11,141 nt of DNA from a virus (taxonomy: Duplodnaviria; Heunggongvirae; Uroviricota; Caudoviricetes). The first letter of the stretch is position 1. Each line of letters starts with the position of its first letter. Below are positions 1-10,597 of the stretch, in pieces. The stretch is taken from IMG/VR virus record IMGVR_UViG_2563366948_000006, positions 1 to 11,141 of that record, one strand, 5' to 3'. Position numbers and translations under genes: made by a program. The notes beneath the pieces were generated by a model, which made no database searches, was not told the DNA's origin, and saw nothing but the letters and a program-made list of their open reading frames with translations.

Positions 1-303
1 TTCTCCCAAACCAAGGTTTTCGAGAGCCGTTTTCACTGTGCCATCCGATTTGATATCGCCAAACGGATTCTTGCGGCTTAACAGCAGCGCACGAAGCGCG
101 GTAAGCAACTGGTCGTGCCGCGCCTTCTCCAGACTGGCACCGGATGTCTCCACCACGCTGCAAAGCTCTTCCTGCAACATGTCAAAGTAGTCATCATCCA
201 GATCGGTGGCAGGCGTGCCTGTCTGGGGGTTACCACGGGTAAAACCGTTTTTACCCGCGCCGAACTTATCCTTCTGCGCGGTTTTCGTGTCTATACGATG
301 CAT
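1..303 (-). CDS. Phage tail fibre protein, N-terminal fragment (gene runs off the window at position 1)
   Basis: Reverse-strand ORF with ATG at 303-301 and GGAG 7 nt upstream; translates [101 protein letters not shown]. The GNPxTGTPAT...QEEL stretch matches, from recall, the conserved N-terminal region of enterobacterial phage tail fibres. Absent from the ORF track because it is incomplete. Confidence 0.5.
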
Positions 304-306
304 GGA

Positions 307-1362
307 TTACTCCGGATATTTAAAAATTACGTAGGTATGCGACGGGCAGAGTTTGTTAAGCACGCACTCGACAACGGTGTCGCCCCAGATAAACAAGCGA
401 CGGTTAAGCTCCTGCTCCCAGTTCGTCACCCACGGCATCATCGTGTAGCGGACAAACTGAATCGCCTGCGCAGAAATATTGGAGAAGGTGGCTTTTTCGA
501 GGTCATTAATCATGTGCGCAGGAATATTGAAAATACCGGCAATCATTGAACGGTTCAGTTTCATCATGTCAATGATCTGAGCGTCAACTGGCGACACAGT
601 CAGTGCCTTGTAATCCAGATCGGCTGGCAGCAGCATGGTTTTGTTTTCCTGGCTGCGTAACGCCTGCGATGCCTTCTGCCACTGATCTTTAAGCCAGCCC
701 CAGCTGTCCTTATTGAGTCCGCTTTTAACGGATACTATCCCCGCCGGACGGGCATTACCGCTGAAGAAGCTTTCTGTGTATTTCTGACCGCTCATCCCCA
801 TGCCTATTGTTTCGGCATGTTGCATAATCGGACTCAGCCCCATCTTCTGATTATTACCCAGCGCACGGATGTGGATCATATCGTCGGGGCTGATCGCAAA
901 CGCCCCATATTCGTTGTACAAACCGTAGGTGTATCGACCACCAGTATTCATCAGCGTCGTTTCCCACGGCATACAGCAATCCAGGGATATGACTTCACCG
1001 CGACGATTACGTTTCACCCAGGTATACCCATTCCCCCAGCCAAGGATGTGACGTTGCTTCAGTTCGCGCCATTTGTAACTGGTTTGCCAGGTATTGGGCT
1101 CATCATGAACCAGATAAAACGCCGGATGATCGCGTGCGGGCTCAACCTTCCCATTGTGCCTGCGCATAACATGCAACGGCATCTGGGCAAGGCTGGAAGA
1201 CAGGACATAGATACAGGAATACACCGCAGCCAGTTTCATCGAAGTTTCAGGACTGACATAAACGTCTGCCCGGAACAGCCCATCAGTATCAACGGCATCC
1301 CCGGTTATCGGGGTGGAAGGATTCTCCAGTGATTTACTTCTGAACAGAGCATCAAGCAGCAC
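307..1362 (-). CDS. Phage portal protein, HK97 family; probably C-terminally truncated
   Basis: Translation contains portal-like blocks [62 protein letters not shown] and [16 protein letters not shown], and sits just downstream of TerL. Start placed at GTG 1362 (AAGGGGG-type SD upstream); the longest ORF starts at GTG 1392 and an in-frame ATG is at 1239. The protein ends about 25 aa after the [10 protein letters not shown] block, whereas HK97-family portals as I recall them continue well beyond it. Confidence 0.65.
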
Positions 1363-1513
1363 GCGTCCCCCTTCTGGCCATAGCCAGTGCACCCACCAGC
1401 AGTAAACCGCCGGACAGCATCAGAGCCGGAGCCATACCAAACTGCAGGTAAAACCCGCACGTAAGCAGGCCAAAACCAGCCAGCCCGATAACATCAGCAA
1501 TTAGTGATTTCAT
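1352..1513 (-). CDS. Small hydrophobic protein (53 aa, two predicted TM helices), function unknown
   Basis: Not in the ORF track. ATG at 1513-1511 overlaps the TerL stop (ATGA overlap); translates [53 protein letters not shown], stop at 1354-1352. Overlaps the portal start by about 11 nt. Confidence 0.4.
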
Positions 1514-3243
1514 AGAATTAAGAGAGCATCGTCCGGATCAAGAGATGAGAGGAAATCGTCGGGTTCTTTGAGCATTGCCCGACCGATCGCCATAATCAGT
1601 GCAACCGCACCATCGATTTTGTTTTCCGCCTGCTCCTTGACAGGCTTCACCACATCATCGTTACCCGGAATGGTTTTGCCGACCACGTTGCCGATACACC
1701 AGGTCATGATGGGATTGCCATCATGATGAAAGCGCCCCGATTCAATTGCCGCTTCCAGCTCTTTCATCGGGTCGGACATGTTGGTGTAGTTCTGAATGAT
1801 GGTGACGGGGTTCAGGTCTTCATCAGCAAGGTCATGTGACAGCCCGGTCGCCCCGAAGGGGTCGATGGGTGACTCGCTGACCGGGCTGATTTTGTTCGCC
1901 GCTTTGGCCTCCTCGAGGATGTAGCGATAATCCACCTCCGCACCATCGGTAACGGTCAGAACCCCCATCTCCACCCATTTCTGAAAGCGTTCGGCTGTCC
2001 GGCGATCTTCATTTTTCTCGACGCTGTACACCGTGTCATACGGTACCCAGAAGCGCGGAGCCACACTGTAGTAATGCGTTTTACCGTCAATCTCGCGGGT
2101 ATAAAGTCGCGCCATACTGTTCATATCCAGCTTACGCGCCAGGTCAAAGGCCAGGATGCACGGTTGCCCCTCGAACTGCTCAAGGGACAGTGATTTATCC
2201 TCGCAGCTCTGCCAGCTCACCAGGTTGAAATACGCCGAACGTGCCGACACCCAGATATTGAGGTGTTTTGTTTTAAAGACGTTTGCCAGACGGGCGTTAT
2301 TTTTCGCACGCTGCTGCTGACTTAACAAAAATTCGCGATAAACCGACACGCCAATATTTGGATTGGCTTTTTCCAGCACCTGCGGGTCGATCCAGTCGTC
2401 ACCTTCATCAACGGTATAGATGATCCCGAACAGTTCATCGTTAGGCACCGAGCCGTTGAGCATCTCGATGACTTCCCGCCGCTTGTCGTAGCACGGCCCC
2501 TCAATGTTGTACCCGGCGGTGGTGATGGCCCACATCAGTGGCTGACGTCGCGCCCCCATCCCGGTAAGCATTGTGGTATAAAGCGCATCGGTGGCATGCT
2601 CGTGATATTCATCAACCACGGCACAGTGGGGTGATGAACCATCACCGGGGTTGCCGATCAGCGGTTCAAACCGCGCGCCATCCTCCGGACGGTTCATGTT
2701 TGAGGCGTTAACCTCAATCCCGAACGCTTCCGTCAGCATGGGTGTGCGTTTACACATCAGTCGCGCCGGACGAAAAACTTCCCACGCCTGTTTCTCTGTC
2801 GTGGCACCGGAATACACTTCCGCGCCAAACTCGTTATCACAGGCAAAACAATACAGGGCAACACCGGCAGAGATTGCCGATTTGCCGTTCTTACGGGGGA
2901 TTTCGGTATACACCTCCCGGAAGCGGCGCAGCCGGGAGCCTTTATTGACCCAGCCAAACGCACAGCAGATCACAAAGAGCTGCCACGGCTCCAGCGTGAT
3001 GGGCATCCGTTTGAATGCCCACTCCCCCTTGGTGTGTGGCAACAGCTGAATAAATTTCGCGGCCCGTTCAGCCAGGTCCTTGTCGAAGCGGTAACGAAAC
3101 GACTTACTTTTTTCCGCCATCAGGTCATCAAGATGGCGCTGGCAGGCCTGAATCACAAACTGGCAGGCCACAATCTTTCCGCGCACGACATCACGGGCAT
3201 ACTGATTAGCAGCATTTACGTTGGGGTAAGATTTCCGGCTCAT
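1510..3243 (-). CDS. terL: Phage terminase large subunit (TerL, Terminase_1-type ATPase plus nuclease)
   Basis: 577-aa ORF, ATG at 3243 overlapping the TerS stop (ATGA). N-terminus [30 protein letters not shown] and overall length and content are typical of HK97-like large terminases; followed by the portal. Confidence 0.88.
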
Positions 3244-3734
3244 GACTCGATGATTTTCAGAAACGGGTTAGTGGCTTTCTTCTGCCCCGCCAGGCCAATC
3301 AGACGCTGGCGGCTGCTGGGGTCGAGTCCGAGCATTGCACCCGTGCTGCTCATCTCGGACTCCTGTTCTTTTTTGGCGGTCAGCTCCGGATTTTTGACCA
3401 TGCCGCCCATTGCACCGGTGATGGTGTTGCCCTGTCTGGCAATATTTTTCACGGCACGTCGCCAGAACTCATAGGCCACGCACCACCGCTCAAGTACCGC
3501 CAGGTCAGTCACGCACAGCAGGCCCTGACCGCAGAGTTCTTTGGTTGTCAGTTGCCACATGATCGTGGCGAGAGGGAGCTCTTCTTCTGTGAACCACTCC
3601 GGTGGCTCAACACCTTTGATGGGCGTAAAAACAGGTTCATCTTTATTCAGGGCTCGCTTGCCGGGGTTTCCGGCCAGCGCCTTGCGCGCCGTTGGCTTGG
3701 GGCGACGCCCGGAACGCCCCGCCGTTCCAGCCAT
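3240..3734 (-). CDS. terS: Phage terminase small subunit, P27 family
   Basis: Translation from ATG 3734 (AGGAG 8 nt upstream) begins [34 protein letters not shown], the characteristic P27-family TerS N-terminus (GRPxKPT...L.GNPGKR.LN). The track ORF begins 3 codons earlier at a GTG (3743). Confidence 0.8.
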
Positions 3735-3743
3735 ATGCGGCAC

Positions 3744-3860: not shown

Positions 3861-4211
3861 TCACTTGAGCCGCTCACGCGCGGTCTTCGCTGCGTGACAC
3901 GACCAGCACAGGCTTTCAAGGTTGCTGTCTTCATCAGTACCGCCGTGGGCCTTCGCCTTGATGTGGTCCACGCAGGACGCCTGCTTCACTATCGCCTGCC
4001 GTAGATGGTTCTGACACAGCCCTTTGTCGCGCTTAAGTATCCGCTCCCGGATGACTTCCCACTTTGTTCCGTATCCTCGCTGCTGCCGTGATTGACCAGG
4101 CTTGTAGGACTTCCAGCCTTCACCTTTGTGATTTTCACAGTAGCCAGATGGGTCTGTTGTGGTGTTGCGACAGCCGCGAACACGGCAAGCCTTTGGTGTG
4201 CGCGGTGGCAT
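3861..4211 (-). CDS. HNH endonuclease (packaging-associated)
   Basis: ATG at 4211 with GGGGAG upstream; 116 aa; cysteine-rich N-terminus (CRVRGCRN...CENH) and HNH core CQNH...VDHIKAKAHGGTDEDSNLESLCWSCHAAKT; located immediately upstream of TerS. The track ORF starts 13 codons earlier at a GTG. Confidence 0.82.
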   Translation of the reverse strand: MPPRTPKACRVRGCRNTTTDPSGYCENHKGEGWKSYKPGQSRQQRGYGTKWEVIRERILKRDKGLCQNHLRQAIVKQASCVDHIKAKAHGGTDEDSNLESLCWSCHAAKTARERLK

Positions 4212-4274
4212 ATTCACTCCCCAAAAAACGTATAGCATTATCGCAGACACTTAATGAATGCCTGCTGAATGCCA

Positions 4275-4472
4275 CTAATCGTCGAGTTGCAATACACCGT
4301 GCTCAAGTGACTCTGAGTAAGCGATCAGCCCTGTGTATTCAGGGATAATCTCGCCATCATCCGCTTCGAATTCCGGGATTGTACCAGTGGTGATGGTGTA
4401 TTGGGGCTGACCATCTTCTTTCGCGAATGCTGCTAGGTCTTCAATCTGCTTAGCTGTAAGAACTACTGTCAT
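4275..4472 (-). CDS. Small highly acidic protein (65 aa), function unknown
   Basis: ATG at 4472 with GAGGT 7 nt upstream (the track start at 4478 is an ATG two codons earlier). Translation MTVVLTAKQIEDLAAFAKEDGQPQYTITTGTIPEFEADDGEIIPEYTGLIAYSESLEHGVLQLDD has about 14 D/E versus 2 K and no R. Confidence 0.55.
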   Translation of the reverse strand: MTVVLTAKQIEDLAAFAKEDGQPQYTITTGTIPEFEADDGEIIPEYTGLIAYSESLEHGVLQLDD

Positions 4473-4490
4473 GCTCATACCTCAGTTGTT

Positions 4491-4513
4491 AAAAAGCCCC
4501 GCTATTGCGAGGC
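4491..4513 (-). terminator. Rho-independent terminator downstream of the moron membrane-protein gene
   Basis: Minus-strand RNA would read GCCUCGC-AAUA-GCGGGGC followed by UUUUU (7-bp stem with one G-U pair, 4-nt loop, U-tract), 24 nt after the stop of ORF 4537..4812. Confidence 0.55.
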
Positions 4514-4536
4514 TATGATTGACTAAAGTGATGCTG

Positions 4537-4812
4537 TCAGGTGTGGGTCCAAATGAATTTAACAATCCCAATAATGCTAGCCAGAACGCCAAAACCAAAA
4601 ATAAATTGACCACATACCCCTATGATTCCCGATGCAATGGCACCGGCATTTGTCTGAGCATTTTCGTTTATGCTCGCCCCCACTAGATACATAATCAAAC
4701 CAACTATGAGAGATGCGATAATCCAATGTTCCACTGCTAATACAATTACAATGCTCAAAATATCTGCTAAACCATCACTATGACCACTCACTGCATATCC
4801 TTGCTTTGACAT
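4537..4812 (-). CDS. Small integral membrane protein (91 aa, glycine-rich TM segments) carried on an AT-rich moron
   Basis: Translation MSKQGYAVSGHSDGLADILSIVIVLAVEHWIIASLIVGLIMYLVGASINENAQTNAGAIASGIIGVCGQFIFGFGVLASIIGIVKFIWTHT is hydrophobic with GxxxG-like spacing. The surrounding roughly 4480-4880 is visibly more AT-rich than the flanking phage genes; in-frame stops lie just upstream of the ATG; a TATAAT sits about 20 nt upstream and a terminator downstream. Confidence 0.6.
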   Translation of the reverse strand: MSKQGYAVSGHSDGLADILSIVIVLAVEHWIIASLIVGLIMYLVGASINENAQTNAGAIASGIIGVCGQFIFGFGVLASIIGIVKFIWTHT

Positions 4813-4878: not shown

Positions 4879-5415
4879 TCAATTGTGGGGGATAGCGTTA
4901 TTTGACTCTCTCAACGAGTCGTAAATACGTTCACACGTCATCCCGGCGGTGTAGCGTTCGTCAGCGATTCCAGCATAACGTTTAGCTTCTGCTGCAATAT
5001 CTCCGAGCATGTCGGCGAACATTCCGGCGTCGGCGTCGGTTGTTTTGCTTCGGACGGCAGCGGCAAGATCAGCGGTGTGCTTTGCGGCGTCCAGGCGTGC
5101 GGCAAGCTTTGTTGCTTCGGTACGCAACTGGCTAACAGTGGCAGACAGGCCAGCAGCAGTGGCAGCAGATTTAGCGGCTTGTGCTTGTGCATCTTTTACA
5201 GCCTCATCACGGGCAATTATGCGCCCTTGTTCAATCCAGCGTGCGGCAGTCTGCGCGTTCGCTTCCTGTGAAGATTCCATGCTATTGTGGTCAGCCCACT
5301 TCTTTTGCCAGCCCCGCTCACTCCAGATGTTCCCGGCAAGAAATGCACCAGCCAACATCAGCAAAACAATGATTGTTTTCCACCGCGCCTGAACAAAAGC
5401 AAAGACCGCTGTCAT
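4879..5415 (-). CDS. Rz: Rz-like i-spanin (inner-membrane spanin subunit)
   Basis: ATG at 5415 overlaps the endolysin stop (ATGA). N-terminal TM helix ([19 protein letters not shown]) followed by an Ala/Gln/Lys-rich coiled-coil-like periplasmic domain; position right after the endolysin; contains an embedded lipoprotein ORF. Confidence 0.72.
4938..5192 (-). CDS. Rz1: Rz1-like o-spanin (outer-membrane lipoprotein), embedded in Rz in another frame
   Basis: ATG at 5192; [23 protein letters not shown] carries a signal peptide with lipobox (LLAS-C), followed by a proline-rich mature region; wholly inside the Rz coding region, the classical embedded arrangement. Confidence 0.65.
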
Positions 5416-6029
5416 ACCAGCAACGCCGCCCGCGCTTTGTTATAACGACTATTTCTGTCAGCCAGTCCATTCTGGCCACCGTTGATGATCTGCGTTACAC
5501 GGACAACATCACCTGAATACATCAGACAACCACGTAATGTGAAATACCATGCAGCAGAACGGGCTGCATGTTTCTCCTGTGTCAGCAACTCTGGTGTGCT
5601 GATCAGATCCAACTTCAGCGCCGCACCGCATTTGGCGTAGTTCTCGCGGCCGGTGATTTGAAGCAGGCCACGACCGCGATATTTCCAGCCGTCACCCTGG
5701 CTGTTATTCCCCATGCGGTCACCATAAACCAGATTGGCTATTTGCGGCTGGTGGGCTACCTGCTTACCATCGACACGCCCCAGCATTTCACACTGATAAG
5801 GCGTCAGGCGTTTACTAAAGGTTTTCTTCAGCCCGTCTACCGAGTAGTTGAAGCTTTCCACCAGCGAGGTAAAACCAGCAGATTCATGCCCAACTTGTGC
5901 AATGAACATGGCCTGATCGTTAACTGCTGTGATTCCAAACTCTTTCATTGCAGCATCAATGTGCGGAAACCAGCGCGCAGCCAGCCCGGCGCTAATACCA
6001 GCCGCCTTTTGAAATAATTGTTGGTTCAT
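5412..6029 (-). CDS. Endolysin, glycoside hydrolase family 19 (chitinase-like lysozyme)
   Basis: 205 aa with GH19-type blocks [35 protein letters not shown] and AAWYFTL; start ATG overlaps the upstream holin stop (TAATG); followed by Rz/Rz1. Confidence 0.85.
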
Positions 6030-6310
6030 TAGTGCCTCAGATGATCAACCAGACGTGCAACGTTGCCTCTGACGGCCACCAGCACGGAAAGAAAAATAGT
6101 GTTCGCCACGATAATGGGCCATGAGGAATGGGGATAAATCCCACAGAGATAGGCCAACGGAACAGCACTGTATGTAACAGTAATCAGCCAGGCTAAACGT
6201 GAAACCCAAGGACGATGCCGCGAATAACCACGACGATAAAACATCAGAGTAATAACAACACAAGCACATAACAGCGCATTTATAGTTGCTGTCGGGTCAT
6301 TTAGCTCCAC
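6029..6310 (-). CDS. Putative holin (93 aa, three predicted TM helices)
   Basis: GTG start at 6310 with GGAGG 5 nt upstream; hydrophobic segments INALLCACVVITLMFY, LAWLITVTYSAVPLAYLCGIY and WPIIVANTIFLSVLVAV; charged C-terminus; immediately upstream of, and coupled to, the endolysin gene. Confidence 0.55.
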   Translation of the reverse strand: MELNDPTATINALLCACVVITLMFYRRGYSRHRPWVSRLAWLITVTYSAVPLAYLCGIYPHSSWPIIVANTIFLSVLVAVRGNVARLVDHLRH

Positions 6311-6626
6311 CTGAACCTCCCCGGCGCGTTATGAGCGCCACCAGCGAGCCGATATCCTGATTATTCAGGAACGTCAGGATTTTAACGGCTAAAGCAGAGA
6401 CGATTACGGCACCAATAGCATCCAGAGGTTTATCACTGTATCCGGTCAAGTGCGCCAGCTTGGAGCCAACCAACCCAGAGCAAAGGATCCCGGCAATATA
6501 TGACACGATAAAATATGCCAGTCGGCGCGATGCACTCAGATCTGCTGCTGTTGCTATGTAGAATACCGTCCTTTTTACAAAACAGAGAAGAGCATCACCG
6601 GACGACGGGCTCATAACCCAATCCAT
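6297..6626 (-). CDS. Holin-like membrane protein (start uncertain: GTG 6641, ATG 6626 or ATG 6614)
   Basis: At least two TM segments (LAYFIVSYIAGILCSGLVG, LDAIGAVIVSALAVKILTFL) and a charged C-terminal tail QDIGSLVALITRRGGSGGAK that resembles, from recall, the C-terminus of lambda S; two closely spaced in-frame Met codons (MDWVMSPSS) could allow a dual-start arrangement. No strong SD at any candidate start. Confidence 0.5.
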   Translation of the reverse strand: MDWVMSPSSGDALLCFVKRTVFYIATAADLSASRRLAYFIVSYIAGILCSGLVGSKLAHLTGYSDKPLDAIGAVIVSALAVKILTFLNNQDIGSLVALITRRGGSGGAK

Positions 6627-6665
6627 CCGGGCGGCTGCCACCGCAGGTGTTCTTCTCTGTTTTGT
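6577..6665. repeat. 18-bp inverted repeat (17/18 match) separated by 53 bp at the lysis / early-operon junction
   Basis: Plus strand 6577-6594 ACAAAACAGAGAAGAGCA; the reverse complement of 6648-6665 is ACAAAACAGAGAAGAACA (15 bp perfect core). Left arm lies in the 5' end of the holin-like ORF, right arm in the divergent intergenic region upstream of yfdP. Confidence 0.7.
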
Positions 6666-6713
6666 GGAGAAACTAATCGGCCTTGCAGGGTCGATATGAT
6701 GAGGAGCAGCAAA

Positions 6714-7076
6714 ATGGCTAGCGAACGCAGTACTGATGTGCAGGCATTTATCGGGGAGCTGGACGGCGGCGTATTTGAAACCAAAATCGGCGCAGTTCTC
6801 AGTGAAGTCGCTTCCGGTGTGATGAACACGAAAACCAAAGGTAAGGTCTCACTCAACCTGGAAATCGAACCATTTGATGAGAACCGTGTGAAAATCAAAC
6901 ACAAACTCTCATATGTTCGCCCGACTAACCGCGGGAAAATTTCCGAAGAAGACACCACCGAAACGCCGATGTATGTCAATCGCGGTGGTCGCCTGACTAT
7001 TCTGCAGGAAGACCAGGGACAGTTACTGACTCTTGCCGGTGAACCTGACGGAAAACTCCGCGCAGCAGGTCGTTAA
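6714..7076 (+). CDS. yfdP: YfdP-like conserved prophage early protein (120 aa), function unknown
   Basis: ATG at 6714 with GAGGAG upstream gives 120 aa (MASERSTDVQAFIGELDGG...); first gene of a same-strand operon whose sizes (120, 274, 178, 120 aa) and order match E. coli K-12 KplE1 yfdP-yfdQ-yfdR-yfdS as I recall them. Confidence 0.55.
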   Translation: MASERSTDVQAFIGELDGGVFETKIGAVLSEVASGVMNTKTKGKVSLNLEIEPFDENRVKIKHKLSYVRPTNRGKISEEDTTETPMYVNRGGRLTILQEDQGQLLTLAGEPDGKLRAAGR

Positions 7077-7141
7077 TATCGTTTTTAATTAACTGATTAT
7101 TTATCTCATCACTGAATATCTTTATATAGTGAGGACTTATT

Positions 7142-7966
7142 ATGTCTCAGAACTTAGACGCAACCGCAATTAATCAAATCCATGCCCTTATTTCTGCTCA
7201 GGGTGTTAATGAAATTATCAGTAAGATTGGTGCCGATGCTGTGGCATTGCCTGAGAATTTCCGCATTCATGATCTGGAAAAATTTAATTTAAATCGCTTC
7301 CGTTTCCGTGGTGCGCTTTCCACTGCCAGCATCGATGACTTTACCCGTTATTCTAAAGATCTTGCAGATGAAGGCACCCGCTGCTTTATCGATGCTGATA
7401 ATATGCGTGCCGTCAGTGTGCTTAACCTGGGTACTATTGATGAACCAGGTCACGCAGATAACACCGCCACACTCAAACTGAAAAAGACAGCACCGTTCTC
7501 TGCTCTGTTGTCTGTTAACGGCGAGCGTAACTCCCAGAAGTCACTGGCAGAATGGATTGAAGACTGGGCCGACTATCTTGTGGGCTTTGATGCTAATGGT
7601 GACGCTATTCAGGCAACAAAAGCGGCTGCGGCTGTCCGTAAAATCACGATTGAAGCAAACCAGACCGCTGATTTTGAAGATAATGACTTCAGCGGCAAAC
7701 GCTCCCTGATGGAGTCTGTCGAAGCGAAGACCAAAGACATTATGCCAGTGGCATTTGAATTTAAATGCGTTCCGTTTGAAGGTCTGAAAGAACGTCCGTT
7801 TAAATTACGCCTCAGTATTATCACTGGCGATCGTCCTGTACTGGTTCTGCGCATTATTCAGCTGGAGGCGGTGCAGGAAGAAATGGCTAACGAATTTCGT
7901 GATCTGCTTGTTGAGAAATTCAAGGACAGCAAAGTAGAAACCTTTATTGGTACTTTCACCGCCTGA
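7142..7966 (+). CDS. yfdQ: YfdQ-like protein (DUF2303-type, 274 aa), function unknown
   Basis: ATG at 7142 with GAGGA 7 nt upstream; 274 aa beginning [20 protein letters not shown]; size and position match K-12 YfdQ from recall. Confidence 0.6.
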
Positions 7967-8093: not shown

Positions 8094-8630
8094 ATGTCAT
8101 TTATTAAAACTTTTTCCGGGAAGCATTTTTATTATGACAGGATAAATAAAGACGACATCGATATTAACGATATCGCGGTTTCCCTTTCAAATATCTGTCG
8201 CTTTGCCGGTCATCTTTCGCACTTCTACAGCGTCGCCCAACATGCGGTTCTTTGCAGCCAGCTGGTGCCGCAGGAATTTGCTTTTGAAGCGTTAATGCAT
8301 GATGCAACAGAAGCGTATTGCCAAGACATCCCCGCACCACTGAAACGACTTCTTCCTGACTATAAACGGATGGAAGAAAAAATAGACGCCGTAATCCGTG
8401 AGAAATACGGGTTACCTCCTGTTATGAGCACGCCAGTGAAATATGCCGATCTCATCATGCTGGCAACCGAACGCCGCGATCTCGGGCTTGATGATGGCTC
8501 TTTCTGGCCTGTGCTGGAAGGTATCCCGGCAACAGAGATGTTCAACGTGATTCCACTGGCTCCAGGCCATGCCTACGGGATGTTTATGGAACGCTTTAAC
8601 GAATTATCGGAGTTACGCAAATGCGCATGA
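8094..8630 (+). CDS. yfdR: HD-domain phosphohydrolase, YfdR-like (178 aa)
   Basis: ATG at 8094 with GGAGAA upstream gives 178 aa; HD-domain metal-binding signature visible (GHLSHFYSVAQH ... LMHDATEAY). The track ORF starts 9 codons earlier at 8067. Confidence 0.7.
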   Translation: MSFIKTFSGKHFYYDRINKDDIDINDIAVSLSNICRFAGHLSHFYSVAQHAVLCSQLVPQEFAFEALMHDATEAYCQDIPAPLKRLLPDYKRMEEKIDAVIREKYGLPPVMSTPVKYADLIMLATERRDLGLDDGSFWPVLEGIPATEMFNVIPLAPGHAYGMFMERFNELSELRKCA

Positions 8631-8983
8631 ATGTTTTCGAAATGGAAGGGTTTCTTCGCGGGAAATGTGTACCGCGAGATCTGAAAGTGAACGAAACAAA
8701 TGCTGAGTACCTGGTACGTAAATTCGACGCGCTTGAAGCTAAATGTGCGGCACTGGAAAGCAAAATAATACCAGTGTCAGCTGAACTGCCACCAGCAAAT
8801 GAAAGTGTTCTGTTATTTGATGCTAACGGAGAAGGCTGGCTGATTGGCTGGCGTTCTCTCTGGTACACCTGGGGACAAAAAGAAACCGGAGAATGGCAGT
8901 GGACATTTCAGGTCGGGGACCTTGAAAACGTCAATATCACTCACTGGGCAGTAATGCCGAAAGCACCAGAGACTAAGAAATGA
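8621..8983 (+). CDS. yfdS: YfdS-like protein (120 aa, Trp-rich C-terminal domain), function unknown
   Basis: Start overlaps the yfdR stop; 120 aa; C-terminus WLIGWRSLWYTWGQKETGEWQWTFQ...THWAVMP; stop overlaps the next ATG (ATGA). Confidence 0.55.
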   Translation: MRMNVFEMEGFLRGKCVPRDLKVNETNAEYLVRKFDALEAKCAALESKIIPVSAELPPANESVLLFDANGEGWLIGWRSLWYTWGQKETGEWQWTFQVGDLENVNITHWAVMPKAPETKK

Positions 8984-9195
8984 GCGTGATAAAAACTCAT
9001 ACAGGAATTGTTATCACCCGAGACGGTGAAAAGCGGATGAAATTACATTCCACTGAAACGTCCTGGGTTGCCGGACGTTGTGAATCCTACGACAAAAAGA
9101 CTGGTTACCGTTGGGGGGCACCTAACATGCGTCGCCGTCTGCTACTGGACAGCATCAGGCCAATAAAACAGGTAGCAACCAGGGAACAAAATTAA
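8980..9195 (+). CDS. Small basic protein (71 aa), function unknown
   Basis: ATG at 8980 translationally coupled to the yfdS stop; MSVIKTHTGIVITRDGEKRMKLHSTETSWVAGRCESYDKKTGYRWGAPNMRRRLLLDSIRPIKQVATREQN; lies between the yfd-like genes and xis. Confidence 0.5.
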   Translation: MSVIKTHTGIVITRDGEKRMKLHSTETSWVAGRCESYDKKTGYRWGAPNMRRRLLLDSIRPIKQVATREQN

Positions 9196-9254
9196 TTATC
9201 AGGACTGGAATTTGATATTACTGCCCGTGTGCAGCGGGCTAAGTGGAGAAACAT

Positions 9255-9461
9255 ATGCTGAACCTCGATTGTGTTCCAATCTCAACTTATTGCAAAGAAA
9301 CTGGCGAAACTCCTGAAGCAATAAACAAACGTGTACAGCGCGGTGTTTGGCGTGAAGGTGTTCAGGTTTTAAAGGTTGAAGGCGTTAAGGAGAGGTGGAT
9401 TGATCTTAGTGAGGTTGCAAAATGGGCCAGACAAAACTGCTCAAACTACCGCGCGGCGTAA
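9255..9461 (+). CDS. xis: Putative excisionase (Xis-like DNA-binding protein)
   Basis: ATG at 9255 with GGAG 6 nt upstream; 68 aa (MLNLDCVPISTYCKETGETPEAINKRVQRGVWREGVQ...); immediately upstream of the integrase and overlapping it by 40 nt, the canonical xis-int arrangement. The track ORF starts 4 codons earlier at a GTG. Confidence 0.55.
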   Translation: MLNLDCVPISTYCKETGETPEAINKRVQRGVWREGVQVLKVEGVKERWIDLSEVAKWARQNCSNYRAA

Positions 9462-10597
9462 CAATCAGGAAACACCGCCAGGGCGAAACGATCAATATAA
9501 CTTTCACCTACAAAGGAGTTAAATGTCGTGAGCCTCTTTCCAATCTGGAAGTAATACCAAAGAACATAAAATACGCCGAGCGCACACTCGGCGAAATTCA
9601 TAATAAGATCGAAAGGGGAACATTCATTTATGCGGAATATTTTCCCCGTTCTGCTCGTTTGAAAATTTTTGGTAATGCTGCTGCAGGCAAAACGGTAAAA
9701 ATGTACCTGGACGAATACCTTGAAATCTGCGAAACGAGAAAACTTTCACCCTCTACGATTGGTGGTTATAAAAAATGCCGTAGTGCGTTAGCCTCACTCC
9801 ACATTTGCCCTGCAAGTGAATTAACACCAGCAATCCTGAAAGCGTGGATTCAAAGCCAGAAAACGACCTCAAAAACAATTCGCAACCAGTTATCTTTCCT
9901 GCGGTCAGCACTTGATGAAGCCGTAACCGATGGGGTACTTCAAATTAACCCCGTATCGTTGGTAACTGCTTCGCGCTACCAAAGTGATAAGTCAGAAGCA
10001 GAAAGCAGCTACGTGGTTGATCCGCTATCACCAGCAGAAGTTGATGCATTACTAGCAGCAGCCGGAAACAAACAATGGGAAAATCTGTTCCGGTTCGCTA
10101 TACATACAGGCCTGCGTAGTTCTGAATTATGTGCCCTTCGATGGCGTGATATCGACTTTGTTGGAAAAACTGCCCATGTCCAGAGCGCAAGTGTTGTCGG
10201 TGTTATCAAAGGAACAAAGACAAAAGCCGGTACTCGTAAAGTTGAACTGACAGAAGAGGCAATGTTGGCGCTGATAAATCAGAAGCCATTTACATTCATG
10301 AAGGATGCTACTGTCTTTGAAGATCCAAAGACAAACAAACCGTGGGCCAGCGCCGATGCGATAAGGAAAAAAGCGTGGATACCAACCTTACGTAAAGCAG
10401 GTATCCGGTACCGTAACCCATATCAGACCAGGCATACATTCGCCACCAGCCATATCAGCCGTGGTGCGAACCTGTTCTGGCTTGCAGGCCAGATGGGCCA
10501 TAAGGGACCAGAAATGCTATTTCGTCACTATGGCAGTTACCTTGCTGCATATGACGGACATACCGCTAAAAATACTAATGATACAAAACAGGCTTGA
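9422..10597 (+). CDS. int: Tyrosine-type site-specific integrase with N-terminal arm-binding domain
   Basis: 391 aa; N-terminal LPRGVTIRKHRQGETINITFTYKGVKCREPL arm-binding-like region; C-terminal catalytic domain with the tyrosine-recombinase R...HxxR...Y pattern (LRSSELCALRWRDID, NPYQTRHTFATSHISRGANLFWLAGQMGH, RHYGSY); last gene before a GC shift. Confidence 0.9.
   Translation: MGQTKLLKLPRGVTIRKHRQGETINITFTYKGVKCREPLSNLEVIPKNIKYAERTLGEIHNKIERGTFIYAEYFPRSARLKIFGNAAAGKTVKMYLDEYLEICETRKLSPSTIGGYKKCRSALASLHICPASELTPAILKAWIQSQKTTSKTIRNQLSFLRSALDEAVTDGVLQINPVSLVTASRYQSDKSEAESSYVVDPLSPAEVDALLAAAGNKQWENLFRFAIHTGLRSSELCALRWRDIDFVGKTAHVQSASVVGVIKGTKTKAGTRKVELTEEAMLALINQKPFTFMKDATVFEDPKTNKPWASADAIRKKAWIPTLRKAGIRYRNPYQTRHTFATSHISRGANLFWLAGQMGHKGPEMLFRHYGSYLAAYDGHTAKNTNDTKQA

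Follow-up and report, generated by a model that had tools for sequence, protein, structure and literature searches.

A cryptic E. coli prophage remnant in which the lysis and early genes were probably joined by deletion of the control region

The window, which is the whole stretch of 11,141 nucleotides analysed here, is best explained as a cryptic prophage remnant in which a deletion of about 9-10 kb placed the lysis genes next to the early operon, by ordinary prophage decay. From the sequence comparisons we give this reading a probability of about 0.93. An earlier note had described the lysis cassette as lying back to back with the early operon, and this adjacency was confirmed by the ORF listing and the Pfam assignments (Table 1). 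It had also reported that immunity, replication and Q genes are lacking between the two blocks. Repressor, cro, replication and Q genes were indeed found neither there nor elsewhere in the window with the ORF listing and Pfam. An integrase with an adjoining small putative directionality-factor ORF is present, and the chromosomal locus of the element is the ssrA-ypjA region, next to ypjA and smpB. The yfdP gene has its annotated start at 6714, and its longest ORF begins at 6696. The ORF nested in the Rz-like gene is a candidate Rz1-like gene, judged by an LLASC lipobox-like motif.

Table 1. Features of the window, with positions, strand and basis of the assignment
Feature	Position	Strand	Basis or remark
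ymfQ/tail-fibre fragment, distal tail end of prophage	1..391	-	far side of first deletion
portal gene, 5' ~1,000 nt, 3' end truncated	390..1392	-	homology to intact portals
large terminase subunit, intact ORF, 577 aa	1510..3243	-	PF03354/PF20441
small terminase subunit (P27 family / Terminase_4)	3240..3743	-	annotation
HNH endonuclease associated with terminase	3861..4250	-	PF01844
Rz-like spanin (DUF2514)	4879..5415	-	Pfam PF10721, E = 4e-42
84-aa ORF nested in Rz-like gene, other frame	4938-5192		ORF list
endolysin, glycoside hydrolase family 19 (GH19)	5412..6029	-	Pfam PF00182; GH19 annotation in relatives
second holin-family gene (Phage_holin_3_7), 93 aa, intact	6029..6310	-	PF05449, E = 2e-19
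first holin (Phage_holin_8), 3' 270 nt only	6297..6566	-	protein and DNA alignment
Phage_holin_8 ORF as listed, 114 aa	6297-6641	-	ORF listing and Pfam
junction of deletion 2	6564..6571		three-way alignments and BLAST breakpoints
accidental antisense ORF head in yfdP leader, codons 1-24 of 114-aa ORF	6567..6641	-	
structured element of early-left leader	6572..6672	+	fold and covariation
small second hairpin, then RBS and yfdP	6676-6695	+	
yfdP, first early-left operon gene	6714..7076	+	98% identical to K-12 YfdP; yfdP annotation in relatives
yfdQ (DUF2303)	7142-7966	+	Pfam; TA8571 prophage annotation
yfdR 5'-deoxynucleotidase	ends 8630	+	Pfam; TA8571 prophage annotation
yfdS-like DUF551 protein	8621-8983	+	Pfam; TA8571 prophage annotation
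71-aa ORF	8980-9195	+	ORF list; TA8571 prophage annotation
small xis-like ORF (68-72 aa), overlaps integrase start	9243-9461	+	ORF list
tyrosine integrase	9422-10597	+	PF00589 and Arm-DNA-bind_2 on identical gene

The junctions of the two deletions

The left arm of the window, with the lysis, HNH, terminase and portal genes, is 98-99% identical to other prophages and to phages such as SKA5 up to 6566/6571. The right arm, from yfdP to the integrase, is 99.8% identical to the prophage of TA8571 and begins at 6564. The same breakpoints (left 6566/6571, right 6564) were obtained by BLAST across thousands of E. coli genomes, and among 5,426 complete genomes there was none that covered both arms contiguously. 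Base-level three-way alignments showed that the trinucleotide TAC (6564-6566) is common to both parental sequences and sits in an imperfect 8-bp microhomology, TAC[A/C]GTCC. A single illegitimate recombination accounts for the junction. It joined TAC[A]GTCC, located in codon 38 of the first holin gene, to TAC[C]GTCC, located immediately 5' of the leader hairpin, and the comparison with the relatives shows that 8.9-9.8 kb were removed between the arms. With its base 6-8 nt away from the breakpoint, the leader hairpin might have promoted the deletion. Microhomology at a cut gene is a mark of a remnant formed by internal deletion and was found here at the Phage_holin_8 gene, with the portal gene also cut at ~390. 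The window likewise shows the loss of essential modules between two flanks that are nearly identical to functional phages.

The breakpoint cuts the first holin gene at codon 38. Protein alignment with the intact 128-aa holin from three relatives showed that the native 5' 112 nt, comprising 38 codons, the start codon and the RBS, are gone. Of the hydrophobic stretches, the truncated holin lacks the first and most of the second. In the chimeric ORF, 24 antisense leader codons stand in for the 38 native N-terminal codons. The same 24 residues open a 64-aa antisense ORF in the intact TA8571 leader. The N-terminus of the 114-aa ORF is antisense leader because the deletion joined this antisense ORF in frame to the remainder of the holin. 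Other gene callers placed the start of the ORF at 105 or 109 aa, which explains that an exact-sequence look-up of the 114-aa version gave no match.

The earlier note had given about 70 bp for the gap from which the first lysis gene and yfdP diverge. The distance is correct, with 72 bp from GTG 6641 to ATG 6714, but the first lysis gene is the chimeric holin. Since the 5' end of the holin ORF is leader antisense, the gap does not represent an original control region between two genes but the 3' portion of the yfdP leader, which the deletion spared.

The identical 44-nt junction was present in six more assemblies, of which three are NCBI isolates, two are Logan runs and one is a gut metagenome, and the junction-bearing copies showed one SNP over 2,901 bp. 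Because six other assemblies share the junction with a single SNP, it is one inherited event and no assembly artefact, and the copies show that the scar has been passed on clonally in a set of E. coli strains. The junction 44-mer had no match in the GTDB species-representative genomes, and in the metagenome collection only the contig of the window itself was matched.

At the other end of the left arm, homology to intact portal genes begins at 390, which puts the junction of the first deletion at ~390-391. The portal ORF continues to 307 within foreign sequence, and its product has 351-361 aa, compared with 408-413 aa in intact relatives. The segment 1..391 matches the ymfQ/stfP regions of about 1,400 E. 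coli genomes at 98% identity and is collinear with the stf/ymfQ boundary of SKA5, in the same orientation as the remaining late operon. In L017 the portal junction is not followed by capsid, protease, sheath or tube genes. These alignments show a deletion at ~390, separate from that at the holin gene, which fused portal to ymfQ and took the head and tail genes.

Intact relatives and alternative origins of the adjacency

The intact relatives carry 9-10 kb between the arms, with Q, DUF968, KilA-N, RusA, an O-like gene, cro, an S24 repressor and a repressor-controlled pL. In this canonical order cro leads leftward through Q to the lysis genes, and the S24 repressor leads rightward through the leader to yfdP. 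It was seen in SfIV, SKA5, ST64B, phiNP, Flotzy and the prophages of TA8571 and 2018-05-5CC, and for identical YfdP proteins in all 10 of 10 places among the matches listed. When early-type IMG/VR contigs were chosen by the leader motif alone, an S24 repressor lay upstream of the leader in 100 of 109 and a holin in 0 of 109. The identical TerL protein was found in the intact prophages L018 and L021, and L018 also carries the full control region.

Among the named phages, SfV is 97.6% identical to the window in terminase and portal and 100% in the leader, SKA5 is 94% identical in lysis and terminase genes, and SfIV is 98.6% identical in the leader plus the yfdP-yfdS region. SfV, SfIV, SKA5 and ST64B have the 9-10 kb immunity/replication/Q region and complete head and tail genes, whereas the window is without all of these. 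With the junction mapped to the base and the region present in intact relatives, the earlier note's suggestion of a second large deletion that took the control region is supported. The deleted regulatory genes are of the e14 type in intact relatives, namely YmfK (S24 repressor), YmfT (YdaS/Cro-like) and YmfL. The e14 element of K-12 kept its immunity region and lost most of its morphogenesis genes. The window, which lost the immunity region, is the opposite in this respect.

The ancestor was probably a lambdoid prophage of the SfV/e14/ST64B kind, in which the head was of HK97 type, the tail of Mu type and the regulatory layout of lambda type. Its rightward half would have read S24 repressor, terminator, pL with operators, a leader of ~0.5-1.2 kb and yfdP, ending in xis and int. 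Its leftward half, starting at cro beside the repressor, would have continued with ymfL, the O-like gene, PerC/yfdN, (Dam), RusA, KilA-N, DUF968, Q, a small ORF and the lysis genes. Judged by their absence, the start and first transmembrane segment of the holin would have been lost with the deleted segment, together with Q and the late promoter. The replication genes, cro and the repressor would have gone with it too, as would pL and the two sets of operators. No sequenced prophage was found in which both arms are >99.5% identical and the middle is intact. The direct ancestor was therefore reconstructed from mosaics. The best matches of the left arm are prophages with thrW-type integrases, and TA8571, the best relative of the right arm, has a different lysis cassette (essD/rrrD).

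This distribution of the best matches over different prophages at different loci, and the lack of a sequenced intact prophage with both arms nearly identical, would also suit an illegitimate recombination between two prophages, one giving the GH19 lysis/terminase arm and the other the yfdP-int arm of the ssrA-ypjA region. We consider such an event unlikely. The arms have exactly the order and orientation expected within one lambdoid prophage, and the left end runs on collinearly into ymfQ and the tail fibre. Recombination between two prophages in such an orientation would also have deleted or inverted the chromosome between them. Mosaic exchange of the lysis cassette is common among these phages, and in 2018-05-5CC and SKA5 the GH19 cassette already occurs together with the same leader and yfdR/yfdP module in one phage or prophage. 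The probability that the junction is a chimera of two prophage regions made by an assembler is practically negligible. The window does come from the first 11 kb of a metagenome contig (OMDZ01000037.1), but the six assemblies with the identical junction come from various projects and assemblers and include a 3.1-Mb isolate scaffold, and assemblers do not collapse on a 3-bp overlap.

The earlier note had offered, as the alternative to a deletion, a KplE1-like family with a different architecture, in which the adjacency would be the native, conserved layout and the control genes would lie elsewhere or be dispensable. In K-12 KplE1 no repressor lies next to yfdP either, and cM2a, PCP06173 and APEC 102026 are also without the control region. 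However, the breakpoints of these elements all differ (a Q fragment; a methyltransferase fragment joined to a yfdR fragment; an IS5 copy; a yfdO fragment), and they are therefore independent decay events and not a shared design; in the window the breakpoint moreover cuts a gene. Every intact relative examined, including functional phages with the same modules, has the canonical order, and KplE1 itself is a remnant. No intact, inducible phage with the adjacency of the window was found among the relatives compared, and the integrase and RDF are unrelated to IntS and TorI. A native family layout is thus extremely improbable. Somewhat less remote, yet still very unlikely, is a domesticated module in which the host uses the lysis cassette and terminase under a host promoter. 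The TerL, TerS, HNH, endolysin, second holin and spanin ORFs are intact and the same scar persists in several strains, but with one SNP in 2.9 kb and 98-99% identity to live phages there was no time for the ORFs to decay. Truncation affects the first holin and the portal, the scan gave no promoter-like site around the junction, and a Mu-like prophage has already interrupted the right arm in one strain (L023). The internal deletion in a single prophage remains our preferred explanation.

KplE1 (CPS-53) of K-12 is a 10.2-kb defective remnant without a repressor that is not SOS-inducible and still excises (PMC2951348). Like the window, it is a defective lambdoid element without a repressor that kept its recombination module, and both have the same yfdP-yfdQ-yfdR-yfdS block in the same order, with YfdP 98% identical. 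They differ in the integrase, which gave only a weak 39-aa local match to IntS at 31%, in the RDF, which gave no alignment with TorI, and in the locus (argW for KplE1, the ssrA-ypjA region for the window). In KplE1 the yfdO fragment is joined ~25 bp upstream of yfdP, and the leader hairpin is missing in K-12. KplE1 kept no lysis or terminase genes, whereas the window kept both. The comparison also shows that the immunity/replication/Q block was lost repeatedly and independently in relatives, by microhomology deletion, IS-associated loss and other junctions, which fits the general picture of prophages that are disarmed by loss of the control region.

Control signals and the surviving genes

In the TA8571 prophage, the repressor gene is directly followed by a terminator and then by a sigma-70 promoter with an 11/12 match (TTGACA-16-CATAAT). 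This promoter overlaps 19-bp operator-like repeats that are also present between cro and the repressor. When the 19-bp operator motif was searched with a pattern of N6 spacing, there were 0 matches in the window versus 6 in the intact relative, all at OR and OL. A sigma-70 scan, which is crude and counts as weak negative evidence only, showed no promoter-like site in 6200-7200 and 8 weak sites in the whole window versus 12.8 expected.

By these searches no recognisable repressor, operator, pL, Q or late promoter is left in the window. The lysis and packaging genes are most likely promoterless relics without a dedicated promoter or antiterminator, and yfdP-yfdT would have lost pL. We infer the silence of the late genes and of yfdP-yfdT from the missing signals and the crude promoter scan. 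The earlier note had asked how the late genes are kept silent. They are likely quiet since nothing is left to transcribe them; on this prediction their silence reflects a missing drive and not active repression. Transcription could still arise from read-through or from weak antisense promoters.

The endolysin, the second holin and the Rz-like genes are intact, and the first holin is without its 38 N-terminal codons and start. All surviving ORFs are intact except the first holin and the portal. The identity to the relatives is so high that the intactness of the ORFs is uninformative about selection; some retained use of the intact ORFs is possible and would be compatible with it. On the deletion reading, the odd adjacency needs no new regulatory logic and is a mapped scar in a decaying prophage. 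For annotation, the 105-114-aa 'holin' and the 351-361-aa 'portal' would become truncated pseudogenes and the element cryptic.

The leader RNA beside the scar

A conserved, covarying leader RNA that is absent from Rfam has been kept beside the deletion scar. It is the sole lead of wider interest here, the deletion itself being ordinary. The predicted fold has a stem of ~25 bp that encloses a three-way junction, with an MFE of -64 kcal/mol and z = -4.9. In 53 unique variants, the 39 pairs were 95% canonical and 11 of them showed compensatory changes. The tip of hairpin A, CGGGCUCAUAACCC, matches the anticodon stem-loop of the initiator tRNA exactly, and the 14-mer is identical to metZ/W/V.

The element had no Rfam match, and no tRNA was found by ARAGORN or the Rfam tRNA model. 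A tRNA gene was rejected accordingly, as only the 14-nt tRNA-fMet anticodon stem-loop is in common. BLAST matches in Klebsiella phages that are annotated 'tRNA-Asn/Arg' do not cover a tRNA themselves; the real tRNA is just upstream of them. A boxA/nut site was considered and not adopted. TA8571 has CGCTCTTTTTACAA where the window has CGTCCTTTTT, and with ST64B and phiNP differing as well, the GCTCTT core lacks conservation. Moreover, the sequence is partly paired within the outer stem and occurs only once. A described sRNA at the leader position was sought in the Pas sRNA preprint, where yfdP, yfdQ and the repressor are all unmentioned, and likewise in the AgvB/AsxR papers.

The put RNAs of HK022 act in cis on RNA polymerase (PMC9378689). 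Like put, the leader element is a structured RNA downstream of a lambdoid early-left promoter, and the repressor of ST64B is HK022-cI-like. HK022 has putL plus putR copies, whereas the leader has one copy per genome; put has ~70 nt and two stem-loops, the leader ~100 nt and a three-way junction; and the leader element lies hundreds of nt from pL, unlike put. A homologue of put was rejected, with the core motif absent from HK022 even when 3 mismatches were allowed.

In SfV/ST64B-like, Stx2a-converting and Stx2c-converting phages, the element is found in the order repressor, pL, element, yfdP/yfdR. A version with a shorter stem lies in the late leader of Klebsiella and Pantoea phages, between the Q-side genes and the lysis genes. 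The early-left and the late leaders are the two sites where processive antitermination or RNA processing is established in lambdoid phages. We tentatively suggest that the leader may be an undescribed cis-acting RNA of lambdoid phages, although we hold this to be rather doubtful. It could modify the polymerase in the manner of put, serve as a processing signal for RNase III or RNase P, or act as a decoy or sensor for factors recognising the anticodon arm of the initiator tRNA.

The junction between the lysis and yfdP blocks

A gene map of the window from six-frame ORFs and Pfam showed two diverging blocks, minus-strand lysis and packaging genes and a plus-strand block from yfdP to the integrase. 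They are 72 bp apart (GTG 6641 to ATG 6714), and neither six-frame ORFs nor Pfam revealed repressor, cro, replication or Q genes in the window. The earlier note, which had the lysis genes back to back with the early operon across about 70 bp without control genes, was correct as a description.

Features of the window (window positions) and of retrieved loci (L-numbers)
Feature	Position	Strand	Basis
Portal ORF	307-1392	-	ORF and Pfam
53-aa ORF	between TerL and portal ORF	-	
TerL	1510-3243	-	ORF and Pfam
TerS	3240-3743	-	ORF and Pfam
HNH	3861-4250	-	ORF and Pfam
Two small ORFs, 67 and 91 aa	within 4275-4812, between spanin and HNH genes	-	
Rz-like DUF2514 protein, lipoprotein-like ORF embedded	4879-5415	-	ORF and Pfam
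GH19 endolysin	5412-6029	-	ORF and Pfam
Phage_holin_3_7	6029-6310	-	ORF and Pfam
Phage_holin_8 ORF	6297-6641	-	ORF and Pfam
yfdP	6714-7076	+	ORF and Pfam
yfdQ/DUF2303	7142-7966	+	ORF and Pfam
yfdR, then DUF551 protein, then 71-aa ORF	between yfdQ and xis-like ORF	+	
Small xis-like ORF	9243-9461	+	ORF list
Tyrosine integrase	9422-10597	+	ORF and Pfam
Independent control-block losses	L001 13705-14307; L003 12041-12553; L004 11391-13155; L007 8879-9605; IMG/VR L085, L103		
Leader-element copies elsewhere	L005 15005-15113; L011 2503-2611; L010 3001-3051; L014 2501-2554		

The two small ORFs between the spanin and HNH genes look moron-like. Their stretch is AT-rich (GC 0.41-0.44 versus about 0.52 in the surroundings), the 91-aa ORF is hydrophobic and both are kept in relatives as 'hypothetical' genes.

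The interval 5412-7141 was compared by megablast with 5,426 complete E. coli genomes and matched in 2,876 of them. Only one genome had a single place covering at least 80% of the interval, and in that genome an additional 1 kb, with a Q fragment in it, stands between the halves. When the query was the whole window, the matches fell into two sets, one ending at 6566 or 6571 (lysis, terminase and portal; 98-99% identity) and one starting at 6564 and extending past yfdP as far as the end of the window (identity up to 99.8%); the two arms were contiguous in none of the complete E. coli genomes. The phage collection was likewise divided, SfV and SKA5 matching the left (lysis-to-portal) arm and SfIV, mEp460, Stx phages and others starting exactly at 6564. 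In a three-way alignment the window follows the holin gene of the prophage-bearing strain 2018-05-5CC up to ...GAATAC and thereafter the yfdP-upstream DNA of TA8571 (also prophage-bearing), SfIV and cM2a from TACCGTCC... At the junction both parents have the bases TAC (6564-6566), inside an imperfect 8-bp match TAC[A/C]GTCC, which is the signature of illegitimate, microhomology-mediated recombination. When the breakpoints were mapped onto SKA5 and 2018-05-5CC, the missing segment was 8.85 and 9.8 kb; with it went the repressor, the two operator sets, pL, pR, Q and the late promoter.

By protein alignment, the first holin ORF keeps residues 39-128 of the intact 128-aa holin_8, and the first 38 are replaced by the 24 residues MAAARMDWVMSPSSGDALLCFVKR. 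In a hydropathy scan the window ORF lacks the first hydrophobic stretch and keeps little of the second. In TA8571, whose leader (the DNA 5' of yfdP) is intact, these 24 residues open a meaningless antisense ORF of 64 aa, and the holin fusion is therefore fortuitous. Since the holin ORF is chimeric with antisense leader codons, the 72-bp 'gap' belongs to the 150 bp of yfdP leader that the deletion left and does not represent a divergent promoter region.

Contig OMDZ01000037.1 begins with a sequence identical to the window, and six other assemblies have the same 44-nt junction, of which three are NCBI isolates, two are Logan assemblies and one is a gut metagenome. Over 2,901 bp across the scar, the seven copies have one variable position, 6226 in codon 29 of the second holin. 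This codon is TAT (Tyr) in the window and three further copies, and GAT (Asp) in the remaining three. Since they differ only there, the scar is a single event, inherited or spread within one lineage, and is too recent for ORF intactness to inform on selection.

Control genes in relatives and the comparison with KplE1

Upstream of the holin, 2018-05-5CC carries a hypothetical gene, Q (ydfT type), DUF968, KilA-N, RusA, a LexA-like gene and Dam, and the block continues with PerC/yfdN, an O-like HTH protein, DUF4222, ymfL and ymfT (cro-like); the opposite strand carries ymfK (S24 repressor), with the early-left genes after it. TA8571, 99.8% identical to the right (yfdP-to-integrase) arm, has the same control block upstream of yfdP, as have the phages SfIV and SKA5. 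A metagenome scaffold (L018), with TerL identical to that of the window and collinear gene coordinates from holin to TerL, carries the S24 repressor, cro, CP76, O-like, PerC, RusA, KilA-N, DUF968, Q, an 85-aa ORF and the full-length 128-aa holin, and complete head and tail genes follow. For the identical YfdP protein, the order Q ... cro / S24 repressor to yfdP was found in 10 of the 10 places shown. IMG/VR was then scanned for the leader core motif, which gives a sample not selected on the adjacency. A cI-like S24 repressor on the same strand was the nearest recognised upstream gene in 100 of 109 early-type contigs (median 801 nt), and a holin was nearest in none; five had too little upstream DNA, two no recognised gene and two an abutting Q gene. 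The last two are other deletion derivatives.

The earlier note had considered either loss of the control region by a second large deletion or membership in a KplE1-like family of different architecture. The deletion is supported, and could be mapped, by the two-parent junction and the control block in relatives of both arms. The K-12 cryptic prophage KplE1 has the yfdP module in common with the window (YfdP 98% identical), and on its map yfdO, an O-gene fragment, diverges from yfdP and a methyltransferase fragment lies beside tail-fibre fragments. However, the window integrase and RDF are not those of KplE1, and the similarity of the KplE1 sequence to all other leaders ends about 25 bp 5' of yfdP. 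KplE1 is described as a 10.2-kb defective prophage without a repressor, not SOS-inducible but still excisable (PMC2951348). With the canonical order in relatives and KplE1 itself decayed, a different native architecture is refuted; KplE1 is a parallel case of decay, not a template.

The immunity/replication/Q block has been lost independently in relatives, with breakpoints differing each time, including the yfdO fragment next to yfdP. In cM2a a Q fragment is joined to the leader, in PCP06173 a methyltransferase fragment is joined to a yfdR fragment, and in APEC 102026 an IS5 copy separates holin from yfdQ. Such losses at differing breakpoints amount to a recurrent disarming of the SfV/e14-like prophage type, and the adjacency caused by the second deletion is an ordinary cryptic-prophage scar.

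The portal end and the chromosomal setting

Positions 1-391 are ymfQ/tail-fibre DNA, in the same order and orientation as at the stf/ymfQ boundary of SKA5. Portal homology starts at 390, and the portal, cut about 240 nt before its 3' end, is joined to this DNA with an overlap of only about 2 bp. Since the tail-fibre DNA abuts the portal homology, a first deletion removed the portal 3' end together with the protease and capsid genes and almost all tail genes. On the isolate scaffold GCA_000408345.1 (L017 15081-20235) the order beyond the portal fragment is a 101-aa ORF, a resolvase fragment, GmrSD, AbiTii and smpB, and a ypjA-like autotransporter faces the integrase end. From these smpB and ypjA-like flanks, the remnant sits in the ssrA-ypjA island region, adjoining defence genes. 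In one strain (GCA_054811845.1, L023 205-4151) a Mu-like transposable prophage with MuA-, MuB- and Ner-like genes has taken the place of the right arm beyond yfdR, which is further decay of the same remnant.

Promoters, operators and the leader element

In TA8571 a terminator-like hairpin directly 3' of the repressor gene is followed by TTGACA-16-CATAAT, which matches at 11/12 positions and lies about 480 bp upstream of the breakpoint. The 34.6-kb TA8571 locus contains six exact or near copies of the 19-bp motif ATGTACC-N6-ATACAT versus 0.9 expected, all in the cro-repressor interval or over this promoter (L005 13723-13774 and 14528-14566). These repeats are likely OR and OL/pL of the phage group. 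The window contains no copy of the motif, no promoter-like site in 6200-7200 and, over its whole length, eight weak promoter-like sites versus 12.8 expected. A mis-spaced N7 operator pattern has a one-mismatch match inside the integrase gene (window 9701-9720, L005 18138-18157), probably by chance, with about 0.26 expected in the window. As to how the lysis and packaging genes are transcribed and kept silent, the simplest answer from the sequence is that nothing would transcribe them, since the repressor, operators, pL, pR, Q and the late promoter are gone; the yfdP-yfdT promoter would also have been lost.

The leader RNA beside the scar is one modest lead. This conserved element of the early-left leader, at window 6572-6672 (+), has a predicted fold in which a stem of some 25 bp closes a three-way junction (-64 kcal/mol, z = -4.9), and seven diverse early-left leaders showed four compensatory pairs. 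Among 53 unique IMG/VR variants, the 39 pairs of the window MFE structure were 95% canonical, with double compensatory changes at 11 pairs; shifted controls gave 43-53% and 0-5 pairs. The loop region GACGGGCTCATAAYCCAATCCA is almost invariant among leader variants, and the 14-mer CGGGCTCATAACCC within it exactly matches the anticodon stem-loop of the initiator tRNA genes metZ/W/V. The element as a tRNA was rejected, as no tRNA matched, and no Rfam family matched. Neither HK022 nor the region upstream of yfdP in K-12 contains the element. Where present, it is single-copy per genome and sits before yfdP or yfdR. Klebsiella and Pantoea phages have a short-stemmed version, whose hairpin A shows additional compensatory changes. 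It is located in their late region, flanked by Q-side genes and by the lysis genes, in one case directly after tRNA-Asn. The position of the element suggests that it may act in antitermination or leader processing.
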